Virus record (IMG/VR): IMGVR_UViG_3300010885_055091
Location: 1-64,000 of that record
Strand: one strand, 5' to 3'
Length of the DNA stretch: 64,000 nt
Source of the DNA: an uncultured virus (IMG/VR IMGVR_UViG_3300010885_055091)
Taxonomy: Duplodnaviria > Heunggongvirae > Uroviricota > Caudoviricetes
Under the pieces are notes generated by a model. That model searched no databases, was not told the origin of the DNA, and was given only the letters and a program-made list of their open reading frames with translations. The first letter of the stretch is position 1, and every line of letters starts with the position of its first letter. Of this stretch, positions 1 to 50,217 are shown piece after piece. Made by a program: the position numbers and the translations under genes.

Positions 1-1983
<1,983 letters not shown>

Positions 1984-43823: not shown

Positions 43824-44471
43824 ATGCCAAAAGAGATATTCAATAAAATGGGTTTTAATAACACTGCCACCATGAGTAGCACGATGGTAGAGTCCCTTTT
43901 TGGTATTAGCGGCGAGATTTTTTGGGAGTTAATAGATTCAAGGACAGGTGAGACCACCAAGGGTCATATCAAAAACATAGTCACACTAGATGCAGGAATC
44001 CTGGTGGCTAGACTAATGAAATCTACGGCTACCCCAAATGTGTCCGAGCCGAAATTCGGAGTATATGCTTTAGCAGTAGGAACCGGTGATGTTGGCTGGA
44101 ATCAAATGAACCCACCTCCTGCTAATGTTTACCAGCGTTCTCTATATAATGAAATTGCTCGGAAAACCGTTGCTTCATCCTCATTTATAGACTCGGCAGG
44201 AGCTATTAGTGGTGTTCCTTCGCACGTAGTAGACTTTAATATTACTTTCGCAGATAATGAGGCAGTCGGACCTCTTACTGAGATGGGATTACTGGGGGGA
44301 GATATTAATACTAATATGTCTATCCGCAATCCGGTTATGCCTCCGAATGGGTCATATGATCCCACAGCGGATGTTACTGGGAAAGATACCCTTTGCAATT
44401 ATGTTACCTTCCCAGTATTAAACAAGCCACCGAGCAGTACTTTAAGCTGGACTTGGCGCTTAACTTTTTAG
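43824..44471 (+). CDS. Tail collar / fibre-attachment protein
   Basis: KNIVTLDAG..YALAVGTG..LYNEIARK..EAVGPLTEMGL pattern of tail-collar fibre N-terminal domains. Confidence 0.65.
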   Translation: MPKEIFNKMGFNNTATMSSTMVESLFGISGEIFWELIDSRTGETTKGHIKNIVTLDAGILVARLMKSTATPNVSEPKFGVYALAVGTGDVGWNQMNPPPANVYQRSLYNEIARKTVASSSFIDSAGAISGVPSHVVDFNITFADNEAVGPLTEMGLLGGDINTNMSIRNPVMPPNGSYDPTADVTGKDTLCNYVTFPVLNKPPSSTLSWTWRLTF

Positions 44472-44487
44472 TGTATATTTAATATGT
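44456..44487 (+). repeat. Repeat A copy 1 (32-bp perfect direct repeat)
   Basis: gcgcttaactttttagtgtatatttaatatgt, identical to 46399-46430. Confidence 0.95.
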
Positions 44488-46384
44488 GAGAAAAGACATT
44501 TCCGGATTATTAGTTCATATAGATTTAGATGCGACAGAATTAAAATTTGGCGTCTTAAAAGACAATCAGTCAAGATGTGTCGTGTCTTGCCATGGGTGTC
44601 TAGAGACTCATGACTCTAAGATAATACTCTTAAAGAGTCATATTTCAAAAAGGGAATTTTATTACTGTAGTAGCTGTTTAGGCAAAATGTCTTGGACAGA
44701 GGAAAAGAAGAAGAAAATTAAAGATTACTGGTCAGTCCCTGAAAATATATTGAAGGAGCATGAAATTAGAAAGGATAAATGGAAAAACGGAAAATATAGG
44801 TCTCAGATGGAAAATATTATCCAAGAAAGGTCTGCGACTCCAGCATTCAAGAATAAAATGTCCGTTTTATCTTTAAAGAAGTGGGAGGACCCTTCTTACC
44901 ACTTAAATATCTCTGACCAGATTAAAAATAAGTGGGAAGACCCGGAATATCGTAATAAGCAGGAAGCTTATAAAACAGATGAGTGGAAGTCTGAGCATTC
45001 AAAAACGCAGACGTTACTTTGGACTGATGAAAGCTATAAACAGAACATATCACGTAAAATATCGGAAGCATGGAATGATGACGAATATAGGAATAATCAA
45101 GTAATTAAGCAGACACAGGTTTGGCTGAATCCTGATCATAAAGAAAAACAGTCACGCATGATGAAAGAAAAATGGAAAGATCCTTCTTTCAGAGCGAAAT
45201 ATGAAAATCTTTGGAAGTCTAAGTCATGGCGGAAAAACCTTTCCGACACTTTAAAGAAAATATGTAGTAATCCAGAATATAAAGCAAAATTAAGTGAAAC
45301 CTCGAAATCTAGATGGGGAAATCCAGAATATAGAGAAAAAGTATCAAAAGGGGTTAGTCGGGCGTGGGATGACCCCGATTACAGGCAAAATAAGGCAGAA
45401 AGTGCTAAGGCTTTTTGGGATAACGAAGATAATCGGCAAAAATTTGCATTAATTAGAGCTGCTCAATCTGGACGTCGTTCTAATATTGAAAAAATAGTAA
45501 GCGAAATTTTAAAGGGATTAAATATTAATTTTGAAGAACAAAAAGCTCTTGGTGTTTATGTTTTTGATTTTTATCTCAATGAATATGATTTATATATAGA
45601 ATGCCAGGGGGAATATTGGCATTCTTTGCCTGGTAGAAAAGAAAGAGATGCCGCAAAGTATACTTATCTTGAGAAGGCAGCTCCCAAGTCCAGAATTTTA
45701 TATCTATATGAACATGAATTTATAAATCCCAATACTATATTATCTAAATTAATGAATGCCACGATACCACAAAACATGCCAGGTAATGACTTTATTGAAA
45801 GCTTCAGATTTCAGGATCTGCTTATTAAGACAGTAGAAAGAGAGGAAGGAGCAAGTTTTTTAAATGCTTTTCACTATGCGGCGAATGGTAGGGCCGGGAA
45901 AAGTATTTATGGAGTCTATTTGGGTAGTGTGTTGATTGCTGTAGCGAAGTTTTCTTCCGTAATACGCCAAGAATCAGCTTCGTCATTAGGACTTCATCCG
46001 AAGAATGTTTGTGAATTGGATAGATTCTGCATTCATCCTAGATATCATAAACGAAATTTCGCTAGTTGGGTTTTGTCTAGAGTGACTAAAATGGTATTAA
46101 GTGACACTAGAATAAATTATATAATATCATTTGCAGATAGTACCTATGGACATAATGGAACCATCTATAAAGCAGCCAATTGGGGGTACGTAAGTAATGT
46201 TAAGGCTGATTATTATTATGTGAATGAAGAAGGGTTTATCCTCCACAAGAAAACTCTTTATAATAGAGCAGTGAAGATGAAATGTACCGAAAAACAATAT
46301 GCTGAAACACATAATTACATGAAATGCTGGGGCCGAGAAAAGTTCAAATTCATATACCCACGAATAGTAAAGACACTCTCCTAA
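44486..46384 (+). CDS. Fusion protein: Zn ribbon + Trp helical repeats + Vsr/DUF559-like endonuclease + Mom-like GNAT domain
   Basis: CHGC/CSSC; about a dozen W.DP.Y-type repeats; EQKALGVYVFDFYL..IECQGEYWHSL..ERD..K; FLNAFHY..ELDRFC..NFAS..ISFADSTYGHNGTIYKAANW. Confidence 0.75.
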   Translation: MRKDISGLLVHIDLDATELKFGVLKDNQSRCVVSCHGCLETHDSKIILLKSHISKREFYYCSSCLGKMSWTEEKKKKIKDYWSVPENILKEHEIRKDKWKNGKYRSQMENIIQERSATPAFKNKMSVLSLKKWEDPSYHLNISDQIKNKWEDPEYRNKQEAYKTDEWKSEHSKTQTLLWTDESYKQNISRKISEAWNDDEYRNNQVIKQTQVWLNPDHKEKQSRMMKEKWKDPSFRAKYENLWKSKSWRKNLSDTLKKICSNPEYKAKLSETSKSRWGNPEYREKVSKGVSRAWDDPDYRQNKAESAKAFWDNEDNRQKFALIRAAQSGRRSNIEKIVSEILKGLNINFEEQKALGVYVFDFYLNEYDLYIECQGEYWHSLPGRKERDAAKYTYLEKAAPKSRILYLYEHEFINPNTILSKLMNATIPQNMPGNDFIESFRFQDLLIKTVEREEGASFLNAFHYAANGRAGKSIYGVYLGSVLIAVAKFSSVIRQESASSLGLHPKNVCELDRFCIHPRYHKRNFASWVLSRVTKMVLSDTRINYIISFADSTYGHNGTIYKAANWGYVSNVKADYYYVNEEGFILHKKTLYNRAVKMKCTEKQYAETHNYMKCWGREKFKFIYPRIVKTLS

Positions 46385-46398
46385 CCAAAATATATATA
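46312..46398 (+). repeat. Repeat B copy 1 (3' end of the nuclease/Mom gene)
   Basis: 87 nt aligning to 47174-47259 with 6 substitutions and 1 indel. Confidence 0.9.
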
Positions 46399-46430
46399 GC
46401 GCTTAACTTTTTAGTGTATATTTAATATGT
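46399..46430 (+). repeat. Repeat A copy 2
   Basis: Identical to 44456-44487; supplies the ATG of 46427..46897. Confidence 0.95.
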
Positions 46431-46897
46431 TTGAATTGACTGAATCAAGGTGGTGGTATTATCATGATTCTACGGCACATTTCACATTTGATGGTATTTT
46501 CGACGGGGAATCCTTCGTATTTGTAGTTCCAGTCAAATATAGTTTTTCTACAGAGGAAGATTCATATGGACTGATCCTTAACGTTCTTATCCCTGATGAG
46601 TCAGAATGTACCACTGGTGGCACTCTCAAATTAGATGGTGTTGAGGTCCCCAGAAGTGATGAACGTCATAAGAGATTCTTGAAGGAAAAAGACCTCAGCA
46701 ACAAGCAGATCGGATGGTCTGCTTTATCTGATCAACTCCTTGAGTTCGTTACCGCTAATGTGGAGGCGTTGAACGAGAGATTAAGGGATGAGCGGGCCGA
46801 TGACGAAGCTTATTGTGTGGAGCAGTGCCTCAAAGATCGCGCGCCGACCGATGACCTCCTCGCGCGCTTGAAGAAGCCCGATTCATTGTCGAACTAG
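46427..46897 (+). CDS. Hypothetical acidic protein (accessory cassette)
   Basis: 156-aa ORF starting inside repeat A copy 2. Confidence 0.7.
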   Translation: MFELTESRWWYYHDSTAHFTFDGIFDGESFVFVVPVKYSFSTEEDSYGLILNVLIPDESECTTGGTLKLDGVEVPRSDERHKRFLKEKDLSNKQIGWSALSDQLLEFVTANVEALNERLRDERADDEAYCVEQCLKDRAPTDDLLARLKKPDSLSN

Positions 46898-47136
46898 ATC
46901 AATTGTGGATCCAAATGAGCGATCTTTGGAATTCATCTATTGCTCTATCATGATTTACATTTCTGCTAAAAAATTGAATGAAGGTACGTGAAGAGTTTTT
47001 CAGATATTGATTCATGAAGCTTGACGCTTGAACGGAGCGAAGCTAAACTTGCCGAAGCAAACCTGAACGAGCTGCCGTGGTTATTTTAGAGACGTTTAAA
47101 GATATAACGAGTTTTAGGAAGCTCTTTAAATTTACA

Positions 47137-47169
47137 AGACCATGAAGAGCCACATGGTCTGCTTCTTTC
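47137..47169 (+). terminator. Possible terminator hairpin
   Basis: agaccatg / catggtct 8-bp arms, 8-nt loop, followed by gcttctttc. Confidence 0.35.
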
Positions 47170-47173
47170 AGCC

Positions 47174-47259
47174 TAATTACAAGAAATGCTGGGCCGAGAG
47201 AAGTCCAAATTCGTATATCCACGAATAGTAAAGACACTCTCCTAACCAAAGTATATATA
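47174..47259 (+). repeat. Repeat B copy 2 (degenerate, non-coding)
   Basis: Shares the identical core ccacgaatagtaaagacactctcctaaccaaa with copy 1. Confidence 0.9.
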
Positions 47260-47327
47260 TTTTTAACCTATTTCAGGTGTAAAGTATGTAGGCTCTGATT
47301 TTTAAACAGAGTGGAAAAAGAGGAAAT

Positions 47328-47621
47328 ATGACTAAAAAAGAACTGATTTCATCACTTGCTGCTTCAGCTGAACTGACTCACAACGATATTGCTAAGGTGC
47401 TCAAAGGCCTTACTGATGTTTGTCTGGATGAATTGAAGACGAACAAGTCTTTCGTTCTTAACGATATGGTTCGACTCCGTTTAGTGGATAAGCCCGCTCT
47501 TCCGGCGCGTCAAATGAAGAGTCCTGCTACTGGTCAGATGATCAGTGTCCCGGCGAAGCCAGCAAGCAAGAAGCTCAAGGTGACTGTTGCAAAGCAGCTC
47601 CGAGATCTTGTTAAGGGCTGA
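47328..47621 (+). CDS. hup: HU/IHF family (DNABII) DNA-binding protein
   Basis: MTKKELISSLA...PARQMKSPATGQMISVPAKPASKKLKVTVAKQLRDLV; SD gagga. Confidence 0.9.
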   Translation: MTKKELISSLAASAELTHNDIAKVLKGLTDVCLDELKTNKSFVLNDMVRLRLVDKPALPARQMKSPATGQMISVPAKPASKKLKVTVAKQLRDLVKG

Positions 47622-47655: not shown

Positions 47656-50217
47656 ATGATGGGCGGTTATGAGAATTTAGGGCCAATCATAAGCCAAAAC
47701 CCCCAGGCGGTAACGCCTGGGGGCGGTAGTTATTCAGCTGATGAGAGATCATATGATTCCGTAGTATTCCAGCAGAATCATCCGCCAATGGACTGGGAGA
47801 TGAATCTCATCCAGTCTGTGGTCGGCAATGCTGGTCTTAGAAATCTAGCTTCTAAATTATTCAGCAGTACGTTCATATCCGGAAACGTATTAGAATCAAA
47901 TGCTCCAGGAGCATTTTACGAATTTTTACCAGCAGTAGCTGGTAATGAAAACATTATTAGATTTTCGGCTTGTGATTTATTAGTAAACGGTTGGGCTCTT
48001 CGTTTAGAATATTCAAATACTGATGTCGATGGTAAGAACTTAGTTCAATTAACTGCTCCACCATTAACCGGTATTAGGCAGGATCTTCTAATATTAGAAG
48101 TATGGAGAGCACTGCTTTCTCCTCTCCCTTCTGTAGATAACAAGAGTCTGGGTGGCTTGATACTACGAAATGGTAATGCCAATGCTCCTGATACAGTAAA
48201 CTTATCGGATGACCTAATAGACCCGAATTATCTAGCAGAGACATCTAGAAGAGTTCAGATTCAGTATAGGATTCGCATCATAGAATCGGTAGACATTCTT
48301 TCCTATCCTGACGGCTTGGGCGATCCATCAATTACTGCACATACGGTTCCATATCTTGGCGGTTCTGATGTAAATGGAAATGATTTGCCTGCGTACGTCT
48401 ACACTGCCGTAGCTGGAGACTCAGGATTATGGCGTTCCGGGGCTGGAGACGCTGCTTCAGCCACTGATATAGGGTCAGTCGATGGCTATATATGTTCATT
48501 ACCATTGTGTGTCGTAGTCAGACGTAATTCCGACACTTGGGACAAAACCACAAATCTCAATGGTGGGGTATTAATCGGTGGAGTCAGTCCTCGACCAGAC
48601 GGTTTATTTTCTGATCAGATAGCCTCGGGGGACCTAATAGATCTGAGAAAATATACTGCCTGGAATGCACAAGAATTCAAGAATGATGCTGTCGATGCAT
48701 TAATGCAGAATTCCTTGTCCACCCAATATGAAGAATCTGCCTTGGGAACTGGCGGAAACACCTTCCTGATGAAGGATCCGATAGGTACTTCTTCACATAT
48801 TTGGGATGCGGATGGTGTTAGAACCTCATATTCAGATAAACCAGTGGTTCATCCAATTGCGTTGTCATTTACTATTCCAATGGCAACCAATACACTGACT
48901 TGTGATCTCACTATAAATGTTGATTTGCCATGGGCTTCAGGTATCAATATACTGGCAAATGCTCCTGCAGGAACCAATTTACTTAGCATTAGTAAATGCT
49001 TCATAAATGATGGCGTAGGAAACATTTATGATGCTTTTGATTCTTCCGTAGCCTATCACATATTAAACATAGTTTATTCTATTTCGGGAACGGAAATCGA
49101 TACAGCCACCATAGAATTTAACCAAAATATTCCTGTCGGGACTGTTTTTTTAGAAGCTTTGGTAGAATATCCACCAAATGTGGGCCTTTCTAGAAATGTC
49201 ATCTCAATAGATAAGGTCTGGGTTCCTAATAATTTTGATGCTTGGGTAGATACCTCGGAATTCACTGCCACATCAGATGCGGATCGTAGTAGCATAAATA
49301 CTTCTTTTAATATTGATTTAGTAAATAGACAGGTTACGTTCGCTTATCCCTCGAATCTCATAAGCGATACGTTTTATAACCACACTCTCTCTCAATTCAT
49401 GATCCCCGACTGTGTCGATGCAAGCAGCGTTGTGATTACAGGTAAAGCAGTGGTTGGGATTGAATATAATGCTGGTTGCACAGTCATAGAGTTTAATCCC
49501 CCTGAAATGGCTCTTGGTGTTGGACTAGCTGTCGATTATGTGGCTTATCGTCCACCAGTCCCATTAGGAATGGTGCCTTATGACTCTATCGATGTTTTTT
49601 ATCAAACTCGATCGATTCAATCGATACCAGTTCCAGTAGGAATGTATTCCCCATCATTTTATCGGCGTACAGATATTGAAAGAGTGTTCTTCATATCTTC
49701 CGGGTCTGGATCCTACGATTCAGCAGAATATGATGCTTCTACGCAATTAGCGATACCAAGACTTCCAATAGTCGATTATTCCGACAGTTTATTCTCTGGA
49801 TACCATGAGTCTTCTGTCGTAACAAACGGTAATGATAATGGGATCAGTGAAGTCTTAGTGACTGAGAAATCCTATTTGGCTTCTGACGGCTTTTATCTTT
49901 CTACCGCAGGTGGAACTACACAAGATGCTGATGGTAGGAATTACTGGCCTTACTCGCCCAATATAATATTAAAAGCATTTAATGCTACTGATTTCAACAT
50001 AAGCACTCGTCGTAAATTAGCTAGTGATTTCGTCTTGGAGCTTAAGGAAGATTTCCCATCACTTGGAAGGAAAGGAAGTCTTTATCTGGCTATGGCTACG
50101 GGTTATTCATATAACTCTCGCATAAATAAAATACATACTTCAGATTCAGTAGAACTTGACGGAGTTTCCCTCTTCAGATTAAGGGGAAACCCACTTTATT
50201 ATCGGAGGTCCTCTTGA
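47656..50217 (+). CDS. Tail fibre proximal/connector-like protein (DUF4815-like N-terminus), paralogue 1
   Basis: YDSVVFQQNHPPMDWEMNLIQ, LEVWR, RVQIQYRIR, RPDGLFSDQI shared with 50927..55558. Confidence 0.65.
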   Translation: MMGGYENLGPIISQNPQAVTPGGGSYSADERSYDSVVFQQNHPPMDWEMNLIQSVVGNAGLRNLASKLFSSTFISGNVLESNAPGAFYEFLPAVAGNENIIRFSACDLLVNGWALRLEYSNTDVDGKNLVQLTAPPLTGIRQDLLILEVWRALLSPLPSVDNKSLGGLILRNGNANAPDTVNLSDDLIDPNYLAETSRRVQIQYRIRIIESVDILSYPDGLGDPSITAHTVPYLGGSDVNGNDLPAYVYTAVAGDSGLWRSGAGDAASATDIGSVDGYICSLPLCVVVRRNSDTWDKTTNLNGGVLIGGVSPRPDGLFSDQIASGDLIDLRKYTAWNAQEFKNDAVDALMQNSLSTQYEESALGTGGNTFLMKDPIGTSSHIWDADGVRTSYSDKPVVHPIALSFTIPMATNTLTCDLTINVDLPWASGINILANAPAGTNLLSISKCFINDGVGNIYDAFDSSVAYHILNIVYSISGTEIDTATIEFNQNIPVGTVFLEALVEYPPNVGLSRNVISIDKVWVPNNFDAWVDTSEFTATSDADRSSINTSFNIDLVNRQVTFAYPSNLISDTFYNHTLSQFMIPDCVDASSVVITGKAVVGIEYNAGCTVIEFNPPEMALGVGLAVDYVAYRPPVPLGMVPYDSIDVFYQTRSIQSIPVPVGMYSPSFYRRTDIERVFFISSGSGSYDSAEYDASTQLAIPRLPIVDYSDSLFSGYHESSVVTNGNDNGISEVLVTEKSYLASDGFYLSTAGGTTQDADGRNYWPYSPNIILKAFNATDFNISTRRKLASDFVLELKEDFPSLGRKGSLYLAMATGYSYNSRINKIHTSDSVELDGVSLFRLRGNPLYYRRSS

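Follow-up and report, generated by a model that had tools for sequence, protein, structure and literature searches.

The locus described here raises the question of what purpose is served by a phage gene that lies between tail genes and encodes, in a single polypeptide, an endonuclease and a domain resembling the DNA-modifying enzyme Mom of phage Mu. The gene is found in a stretch of 64,000 nucleotides (the window), which is the first 64 kb of the 126,943-bp IMG/VR virus record IMGVR_UViG_3300010885_055091. Since a record of this length is rated only 30% complete by CheckV, the source is a jumbo phage, an uncultured one from freshwater; a 257-kb contig from another record represents the same phage, with 1 mismatch over 12.6 kb of the region. 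The open reading frame (ORF; positions 44486-46384, + strand) has a GTG start, is free of internal stops and encodes 632 amino acids, which comprise, from N to C terminus, a four-cysteine zinc ribbon, 15 Trp-led helical repeats, a Vsr-like nuclease and a Mom-family GNAT domain. An earlier sequence-only reading of this DNA had proposed these four features in one protein, and all of them were recovered close to the proposed positions. We regard the ORF as probably a free-standing Hef-type (EDxHD/Vsr-like) homing-type selfish endonuclease gene, located between conserved tail-module genes. The best explanation overall, held with marginally less assurance, is a homing endonuclease with a Mom domain that probably works and most likely serves self-marking. 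Beyond the presence of domains and residues, the interpretation given below is inferred.

The nuclease domain (45473-45775, + strand, residues ~330-430) is of the Vsr-like, EDxHD type. As a single sequence it stays just under the Pfam cut-off for DUF559 (20.2 bits, cut-off 20.6) and gives weak matches to MTES_1575 and Vsr; PADLOC also reports a weak Vsr match for the ORF (E 2.1e-5), and an NCBIfam search of the ORF returned nothing useful. A family profile of 59 sequences matches the catalytic domain of the homing endonuclease I-Bth0305I (3r3p) with E 1.2e-11. A structural model of residues 315-632, with a mean predicted local distance difference test score (pLDDT) of 92.3 and a predicted template modelling score (pTM) of 0.82, was compared with known structures by VIA-align; it superimposes on 3r3p_B with Z 13.7 over 95 of 98 residues (root-mean-square deviation, rmsd, 2.7) and on Vsr (1cw0_A) with Z 11.9. 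The active site of I-Bth0305I is formed by E170, D196, E206/N208, H213 and D222 (Taylor et al. 2011, PMC3239194), which correspond to E335, D361, E372/Q374, H379 and D388 of the ORF, the predicted catalytic residues; in the profile alignment to 3r3p, the position of F62 in Vsr is occupied by the acidic E372. The Vsr/DUF559-type nuclease proposed earlier is thereby upheld, and it belongs to the EDxHD/Vsr-like homing endonuclease family of I-Bth0305I. Taylor et al. (2011, PMC3239194) describe I-Bth0305I as a dimer that leaves 2-nt 5' overhangs and include the Hef-type homing endonucleases of phages in the same Vsr-like family.

The C-terminal domain (45806-46381, + strand, residues ~441-632) is Mom-like, as had been suspected. 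It matches Pfam PF25680 with 90.9 bits (cut-off 27.1, E 1.1e-25; residues 445-625 on profile positions 2-184 of 202) and PHROG 1384 with an E-value of 2e-27. The Foldseek comparison suggested in the sequence-only reading was carried out and placed Mu Mom (8bv8) on top with E 2e-11; VIA-align likewise ranked 8bv8_B first (Z 17.0, 166 residues aligned), with ordinary GNATs at Z 14.2 or below. Sequence identity to Mu Mom is ~18-22%. The functional residues H58, Y59, R111, S124, D149 and Y159 of Mu Mom (Silva et al. 2026, PMC13219725) are all kept and correspond to H463, Y464, R513, S527, D551 and Y561. In Mu Mom, a helix-turn-helix-like (HTH-like) insertion (residues ~175-209) is essential for activity (Silva et al. 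2026, PMC13219725). The tail of the ORF after Y561 has the same length as the Mu tail after Y159, and the model places two helices (model residues 274-283 and 288-294), flanked by strands, where Mu has this insertion. That Mom works by transferring glycine from Gly-tRNA was established only in 2026. Protection of DNA from restriction by Mu Mom is described by Silva et al. (2026, PMC13219725).

Conservation was scored by aligning 212 proteins to a hidden Markov model (HMM) of residues 315-632; of the 199 that matched, 195 covered both domains, and the following counts refer to these 195. In the nuclease, D361 is present in 195, E372 in 188 (with D in 7 more), H379 in 191, D388 in 194 and K391 in 193 sequences; the position of E335 holds E in 73 and Q in 101. 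In the Mom domain the counts are 194 for H463, 195 for Y464, 192 for R513, 190 for N524, 179 for S527 (with T in 13 more), 195 for D551, 189 for H556 and 193 for Y561. Because both active sites are almost invariant, the nuclease and the Mom domain are probably both enzymes in the clade of the ORF, and judged by these counts both sites are under selection. For the Mom domain of the ORF itself we lean, by a small degree, towards catalytic activity.

Equal conservation of the two sites also speaks for a rival explanation, namely a single-chain weapon resembling a restriction-modification system, in which Mom would mark the phage genome and the nuclease would degrade unmodified DNA of the host or of a superinfecting phage. 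This is the cut-and-protect idea of the sequence-only reading, which had set it beside a homing element carrying anti-restriction cargo. The idea is not new, as a model of this kind was stated for Mom fusions to restriction endonuclease (REase) domains in jumbo phages by Iyer et al. (2021, PMC7824862), and the one observation here that supports it as such is that the Mom residues are as conserved as those of the nuclease. The nuclease itself is nearest to a proven homing endonuclease, which argues against the weapon. The homing element is the alternative that fits the evidence best, given the nuclease family, presence or absence of the gene at one site, the paralogues with a broken copy, and a decayed remnant; the last three are described below.

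Relatives of the protein are abundant. A word-indexed protein search returned 74 proteins, 58 of them with the Mom Pfam domain and many on contigs of 190-380 kb; their JGI names are 'very-short-patch-repair endonuclease' or 'GNAT superfamily N-acetyltransferase'. An exhaustive profile search gave 37,274 proteins at E <=1e-3 and 699 at E <=1e-30, and the best 150 matches, all with E <=1.3e-126, span both the nuclease and the Mom domain. At least 540 IMG/VR viral stretches, among 607 candidates, encode a relative. The PHROG profile phrog_559 is matched over nearly its full length (E 9.8e-19; residues 54-608 on profile positions 43-574 of 607), and its label 'HNH endonuclease' is at odds with the Vsr-like fold. 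In a collection of 50,697 phage records, megablast with the ORF found no match, and tblastn found 134 records, none covering 80% of the query. The half composed of nuclease and Mom domain matches genes called 'Hef-like homing endonuclease' in Campylobacter phages, at 4-8 places per genome (tblastn). One Campylobacter Hef sequence matched 420 phage records, which include an Acinetobacter 'putative nuclease/acetyltransferase protein' and F-LimVII of Dickeya phage LIMEstone1.

The N-terminal part of the ORF would choose the target. The zinc ribbon (44567-44683, + strand, residues ~28-66) is defined by the cysteine pairs CHGC (C35, C38) and CSSC (C61, C64), and the model has strands at 30-34 and 41-45. 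Among 31 aligned homologues the cysteines of the second pair never vary and those of the first are at least 90% conserved, in agreement with the zinc ribbon predicted earlier. After it come the Trp-led helical repeats of ~17 amino acids (44693-45469, + strand, residues ~70-328). Self-comparison of residues 66-330 gives a peak at offset 17 (z 11.6, against 200 shuffles), with further maxima at offset 34 (z 9.0) and 51 (z 5.2), which confirms the proposed period of ~17 amino acids; the earlier estimate of about a dozen units was slightly low, as 15 were counted between residues 82 and 327 (13 of 17, one of 12 and one of 13 amino acids). Their consensus is W-x-D/N-P-E-Y-R-x-K-x-S-x-x-x-K, and the array is basic (isoelectric point 9.5). 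An AlphaFold2 model of the N-terminal part, made with 31 sequences, has one helix per repeat unit (pLDDT 93.2); its pTM of 0.45 fits an elongated shape. In the homologue of a related phage (L010:5501-5602), two neighbouring 51-nt repeat units are 80% identical in DNA, and the array seems to grow by recent duplication of units.

No fold can be named for the array, since comparison of the N-terminal model with the PDB revealed no resembling structure: Foldseek gave no match at E <=0.001, the best VIA-align match (Z 5.2) is confined to the zinc ribbon part, and the VIA-align matches on the repeats are long coiled coils with rmsd values of tens of angstroms. A Pfam match to the GerD core (PF17898; 36.8 bits, cut-off 29.5) is limited to the repeat units at 224-272, and the GerD structure 4o8w gives E 0.59 and an rmsd of 15 in Foldseek; we read these matches as an echo of the DP-x-Y/F repeat motif. 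In the ESM Atlas, residues 66-330 retrieve DUF7487 clusters (scores 0.85 and 0.77, to be taken as leads only), and the structural neighbours are viral NUMOD3, GIY-YIG, HNH and intein-endonuclease clusters, all with a template modelling score below 0.5. The DNA-binding region of I-Bth0305I is NUMOD-type; for the ORF, no Pfam NUMOD family matches at E up to 1. The repeat part finds weaker matches in GIY-YIG, HNH and NUMOD3 proteins. The phage has, elsewhere in the same record and outside the window (G000:C1 about 98988-100037, - strand; L002:1333-2382), a GIY-YIG endonuclease of 349 amino acids (Pfam E 6.1e-9, with a weak NCBIfam match to group I intron endonucleases). Helical repeats of the same type as in the ORF (W/x-D/R-P-E-Y-R) come after its GIY-YIG domain, and a zinc ribbon forms the C-terminus, so that two nuclease classes of one phage share a repeat module.

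Because like repeats sit on GIY-YIG proteins, in this phage and elsewhere, and on HNH proteins, it is plausible that the array reads the DNA target, as the sequence-only reading had it. The units are too degenerate to suggest a code of one repeat per base as in transcription activator-like effectors (TALE), which was set aside, since they share only the W-x-D/N-P-E-Y-R frame and no hypervariable position stands out. A predicted DNA-binding array of 260 residues points to long, rare targets and not to the frequent sites of a restriction enzyme, which is a second argument against the restriction-modification-like weapon.

Signs of mobility are seen in the genomic context of the gene. Six related phages share the order of a 2222-aa gene, a 153-aa gene, a 215-aa gene, a variable site and an 853-aa gene. 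In the window the left border of the site is the tail-module gene for 215 amino acids (43824-44471, + strand, PHROG 5417) and the right border the gene for 853 amino acids (47656-50217, + strand), both conserved in relatives. The endonuclease ORF starts 14 nt after the stop codon of the 215-aa gene, and a homologue follows directly on this gene in four of the six phages (that of the window and the loci L008, L010 and L012), with gaps of 14-19 nt. In L005 there is no endonuclease gene, and a single base (C) separates the stop of the 215-aa homologue from the start of the 853-aa homologue; in L006 three unrelated ORFs occupy the site. One exact junction between these conserved tail genes thus either carries the gene or lacks it, and the stretch between the gene and the 853-aa gene is different in every case. 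Its G+C content of 35.1% compares with 43.1, 45.2, 46.6 and 41.4% in four neighbouring genes. At 42 related loci, hand-picked from 76 for a full 5-kb upstream flank and with evident duplicates and short contigs excluded, clustering of the 167 nearest neighbour proteins yields 121 groups, of which 96 have a single member.

Retention of the gene at the same site in four of six phages, with ~42% identity, would also be expected of a weapon, against which stands its absence from the related phage L005. The same conserved position in four phages favours a further alternative, in which the gene has been domesticated to the benefit of the phage: anti-restriction of the type known from Mu Mom, which guards DNA against restriction (Silva et al. 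2026, PMC13219725), would be the main task, and the nuclease and repeats would be leftover or regulatory. Here L005 counts against it too, as it lacks the gene and has no replacement; moreover, the nuclease site is as conserved as the Mom site, and stand-alone Mom genes of ~200 amino acids suffice for anti-restriction in other phages.

Footprints are found around the gene. A perfect direct repeat of 32 bp has its left copy at 44456-44487, in which the 3'-terminal 16 nt of the 215-aa gene are followed by 12 nt of spacer and by ATGT, and its right copy at 46399-46430, 14 nt past the stop of the ORF. In the left copy the ATG is followed by TGA, a mini-frame with which the GTG start of the endonuclease overlaps; in the right copy the ATG opens an ORF of 156 amino acids. 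Since relatives conserve the 3' end of the 215-aa gene, the right copy is a duplicated piece of that gene. A second direct repeat, of ~88 bp, has its left copy at 46312-46398 (73 nt from the end of the ORF and the 14 nt after it) and its right copy at 47174-47259, which is 93-95% identical to the end of the intact ORF with one 1-nt indel. The latter is part of a decayed 3' remnant of a second Hef/Mom gene (47063-47259, + strand), located 0.8 kb downstream of the gene and recognized by DNA identity at its end and by tblastn further upstream; the last 18 amino acids are 83% identical (E 4.8e-6), and longer stretches of family proteins match with E 0.001-0.02, interrupted by stops. The locus thus reads: 215-aa gene, its 3' end and spacer, intact endonuclease gene, duplicated 3' end and spacer, 156-aa ORF, decayed endonuclease remnant, HU-like gene, 853-aa gene. 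On the simplest reading, which is inference only, two alternative alleles of one site now stand in tandem: the first carries the gene, and in the second an older copy has been largely replaced. Homing genes are known to invade, decay and invade again, and this reading would fit such a cycle. No flanking direct repeats of this kind were seen at the homologues in L008, L010, L012 and L024.

Two further genes lie inside the variable site. The 156-aa ORF (46427-46897, + strand, 45% G+C), which starts in the duplicated 32-bp segment, has no Pfam or PHROG match and was not found in the five related loci compared. The HU/IHF-type gene (47328-47621, + strand) matches Pfam Bac_DNA_binding with E 1.2e-13. 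Two lake metatranscriptome contigs of 151 nt cover 47321-47600 with at least 99% identity, for which carry-over of DNA is possible. In the lake RNA run this HU-like segment is the only part covered and nothing of the endonuclease ORF, and the run is uninformative on expression of the ORF. A scan for sigma-70 promoters stayed at chance level, with 17 sites against 14.4 +/- 3.4 in shuffled sequences.

The same phage possesses two paralogues of the ORF, ~190 kb away on the 257-kb contig, which differ in their N-termini. The intact one (L024:4947-6377, ~242.4-243.9 kb) encodes 476 amino acids with 42% identity (Mom Pfam E 1e-23) and has a zinc ribbon, few repeats and a different neighbourhood. The broken one (L052:4446-5948, ~230.4-231.9 kb) has an N-terminus of multiple zinc ribbons without Trp repeats, and its nuclease carries an in-frame stop, with D in place of E372 and Y in place of H379; its Mom motifs have all been preserved, and an ORF of 280 amino acids could still express the Mom part. 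A copy that has lost the nuclease and retains the Mom signature looks as if Mom were kept for its own sake, which suits the weapon. The differing N-termini of the paralogues, the decayed remnant, the low G+C content and presence or absence at one junction are, on the other hand, the habits of a selfish homing gene, and all told we consider the weapon unlikely. Two further copies in the same phage also argue against the domesticated gene, which in our judgement is very improbable.

For the homing endonuclease that we favour, the following course of events can be envisaged. The basic N-terminal array and the zinc ribbon would bind a long DNA site, and the Vsr-like domain would nick or cut the gene-less allele of a co-infecting relative, after which repair would copy the endonuclease gene into that allele. 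By analogy with Mu Mom, the Mom domain would transfer glycine from Gly-tRNA to the N6 of adenine, and the nuclease would spare the element's own genome or target site if it bears this mark. Self-immunity by marking of the own genome or of the target site is only a tentative assignment of the Mom role. A stricter form, in which one array delivers both enzymes to the same long site and only the unmarked allele is cut, we hold to be rather doubtful, and the same reserve applies to the product that it would entail, a glycine-derived N6 adduct, made via Gly-tRNA, on an adenine of the element's own target copy. If true, the immunity of a homing element would be epigenetic rather than sequence-based, the protein would represent a natural addressable enzyme for adenine hypermodification in DNA, and the paralogue with broken nuclease and intact Mom would be an 'antidote-only' copy.

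Several observations weigh against homing with a working Mom domain. The syntenic homologues are 42-43% identical, compared with 35-36% for the flanking 853-aa gene and 64-69% for the 215-aa gene; because the homologues are no more diverged than the 853-aa gene, vertical inheritance is possible, and the gene may have resided at the site for long rather than homed recently. In the only DNA run that contains the phage, which may be the source sample, no gene-less joint was found, and the read depth is equal on the gene (17.2) and on its flanks (14.8 and 15.3); like the lake RNA run, it is uninformative on polymorphism of the ORF. With regard to Mom, R151 of the Mu enzyme, reported as essential (Silva et al. 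2026, PMC13219725), is T553 in the ORF and T in 176 of the 195 relatives, and the position of W48, needed for the Mu Mom dimer, is occupied by E. A catalytic Mom is, furthermore, dispensable for persistence of the Hef class, since classical Hef-like proteins have lost several Mom signature residues: in an alignment to the same HMM, CP30A of Campylobacter, Kimel 185, F-LimVII, Synechococcus B23 gp281 and PTm5 ORF-301 keep the Mu-type H58 and R111, show L or I instead of Y59, and lack the positions of N121 and GH. CP30A reaches 24.5 bits with the Pfam Mom profile, which is under the cut-off. Finally, the assignment of a Mom-like domain to the Hef of phage U5, the one Hef that has been studied experimentally, rests on annotation chains only.

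These points lead to another rival, a homing endonuclease whose Mom-like domain no longer modifies DNA and serves as a DNA-binding, base-flipping or dimerization module. The classical Hef-like proteins with their altered Mom signature belong to a family found in 420 phage records, R151 and W48 are not kept in the ORF, and the pTM of 0.82 of the two-domain model suggests that nuclease and Mom domain pack as one unit. The residues common to stand-alone Mom-like enzymes are, however, almost invariant in the clade of the ORF, which is hard to explain without catalysis or substrate binding. Nor is R151 kept in stand-alone Mom-like proteins: four of them, from Listeria, Halogranum and Enterococcus phages, have G, T or N at this position, so that R151 is a feature of Mu and not of the family, and Campylobacter Hef also lacks the arginine. 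A non-modifying domain is accordingly not our preferred view and seems improbable to us.

The ORF lies in a block of very large, uniformly oriented virion genes, among which PHROG matches to baseplate wedge, tail and tail-fibre proteins occur. The giant ORFs of the window (1-64000) include proteins of 2222, 1769, 1661, 1543, 1274, 1157 and 1150 amino acids, among others. Because 24 of the 32 ORFs scanned in the window have no PHROG match at E <=1e-5, the virion module of this phage is poorly charted. At 1-1971 (- strand), on the opposite strand, lies a fragment of a collagen-like tail-fibre gene with many PHROG tail-fibre matches (best E 2.6e-99) and a local G+C content of 50%, against ~38-40% elsewhere.

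With respect to known systems, the fusion has been published since 2021 and the nuclease family since 2011, and the ORF adds a member to these and no new kind. I-Bth0305I shares with the ORF the nuclease fold, the five active-site positions and the location of the DNA-binding region, which is a predicted one in the ORF, N-terminal to the nuclease. It is itself intron-encoded, contains two NUMOD2/HTH motifs and ends after the nuclease (residue 266), as far as described by Taylor et al. (2011, PMC3239194), whereas the ORF is free-standing, carries a zinc ribbon and 15 Trp-led repeats and continues after the nuclease with a Mom domain of 190 residues.

Hef-like proteins of cultured phages were also compared. 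In this set (Campylobacter CP30A, Acinetobacter Kimel orf185, Dickeya F-LimIII/VII/VIII/X and Tenacibaculum PTm5), an N-terminal Zn/DNA-binding part, a Vsr-like nuclease and a Mom-like C-terminus occur in the same order, with 23-27% identity to the ORF over the shared half. Their genes are likewise free-standing, located beside capsid, tail or baseplate genes and present in several copies per genome. In Acinetobacter Kimel, Dickeya LIMEstone1 and Tenacibaculum PTm5 a Hef-like gene directly adjoins the gene for the major capsid protein, and in Synechococcus phage B23 it is one gene away. The hef gene of phage U5 encodes an endonuclease cleaving nrdB (Edgell et al. 2010). Judged by the signature residues, the clade of the ORF has a canonical Mom, the classical Hef-like proteins a degraded Mom-like domain. 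Since it keeps every residue common to working Mom enzymes, which the Hef-like proteins of cultured phages do not, the clade could serve as a test case to settle what the Mom half does in these very common selfish genes. Should the Mom domain prove site-directed, its combination with the Trp-repeat array would be interesting as a module for targeted DNA modification.

The sequence-only reading had allowed that nuclease-GNAT fusions might already be catalogued, and such fusions of Mom to REase-fold nucleases in jumbo phages were indeed reported by Iyer et al. (2021, PMC7824862), who proposed that momylation shields the phage and the nuclease attacks host or rival DNA. These resemble the ORF in the combination of Mom-GNAT and REase-fold endoDNase, in the jumbo-phage host and in the protect/attack logic. 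The account in their section 3.4.7, one paragraph and a figure, contains no link to Hef/EDxHD nucleases, no Trp-repeat array and no locus footprints. Mom fusions are not mentioned by Silva et al. (2026, PMC13219725). A literature search for 'Mom-like' or 'momylation' together with homing endonucleases found nothing except a 2015 essay with one mention of each. Within the literature searched, the work on Mom fusions and that on homing endonucleases thus seem not to have been joined so far.

Mu Mom and the Mom domain of the ORF have in common the GNAT fold with an HTH-like insertion, reflected in the Z-score of 17.0, and the six functional residues. Mu Mom is a stand-alone dimer of 241 amino acids as annotated, with Com as its regulator, whereas the Mom domain described here forms the tail of a 632-aa nuclease and has T in place of R151 and E in place of W48. 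Single-chain restriction-modification enzymes of Type IIC/IIG also unite reader, nuclease and modification in one polypeptide, with an S-adenosylmethionine-dependent methyltransferase and short recognition sites. The ORF is similar to them in the logic of cutting and protecting by one polypeptide, although no homology was seen and no search was aimed at it, and it differs by its GNAT/Mom domain and its long repeat array.

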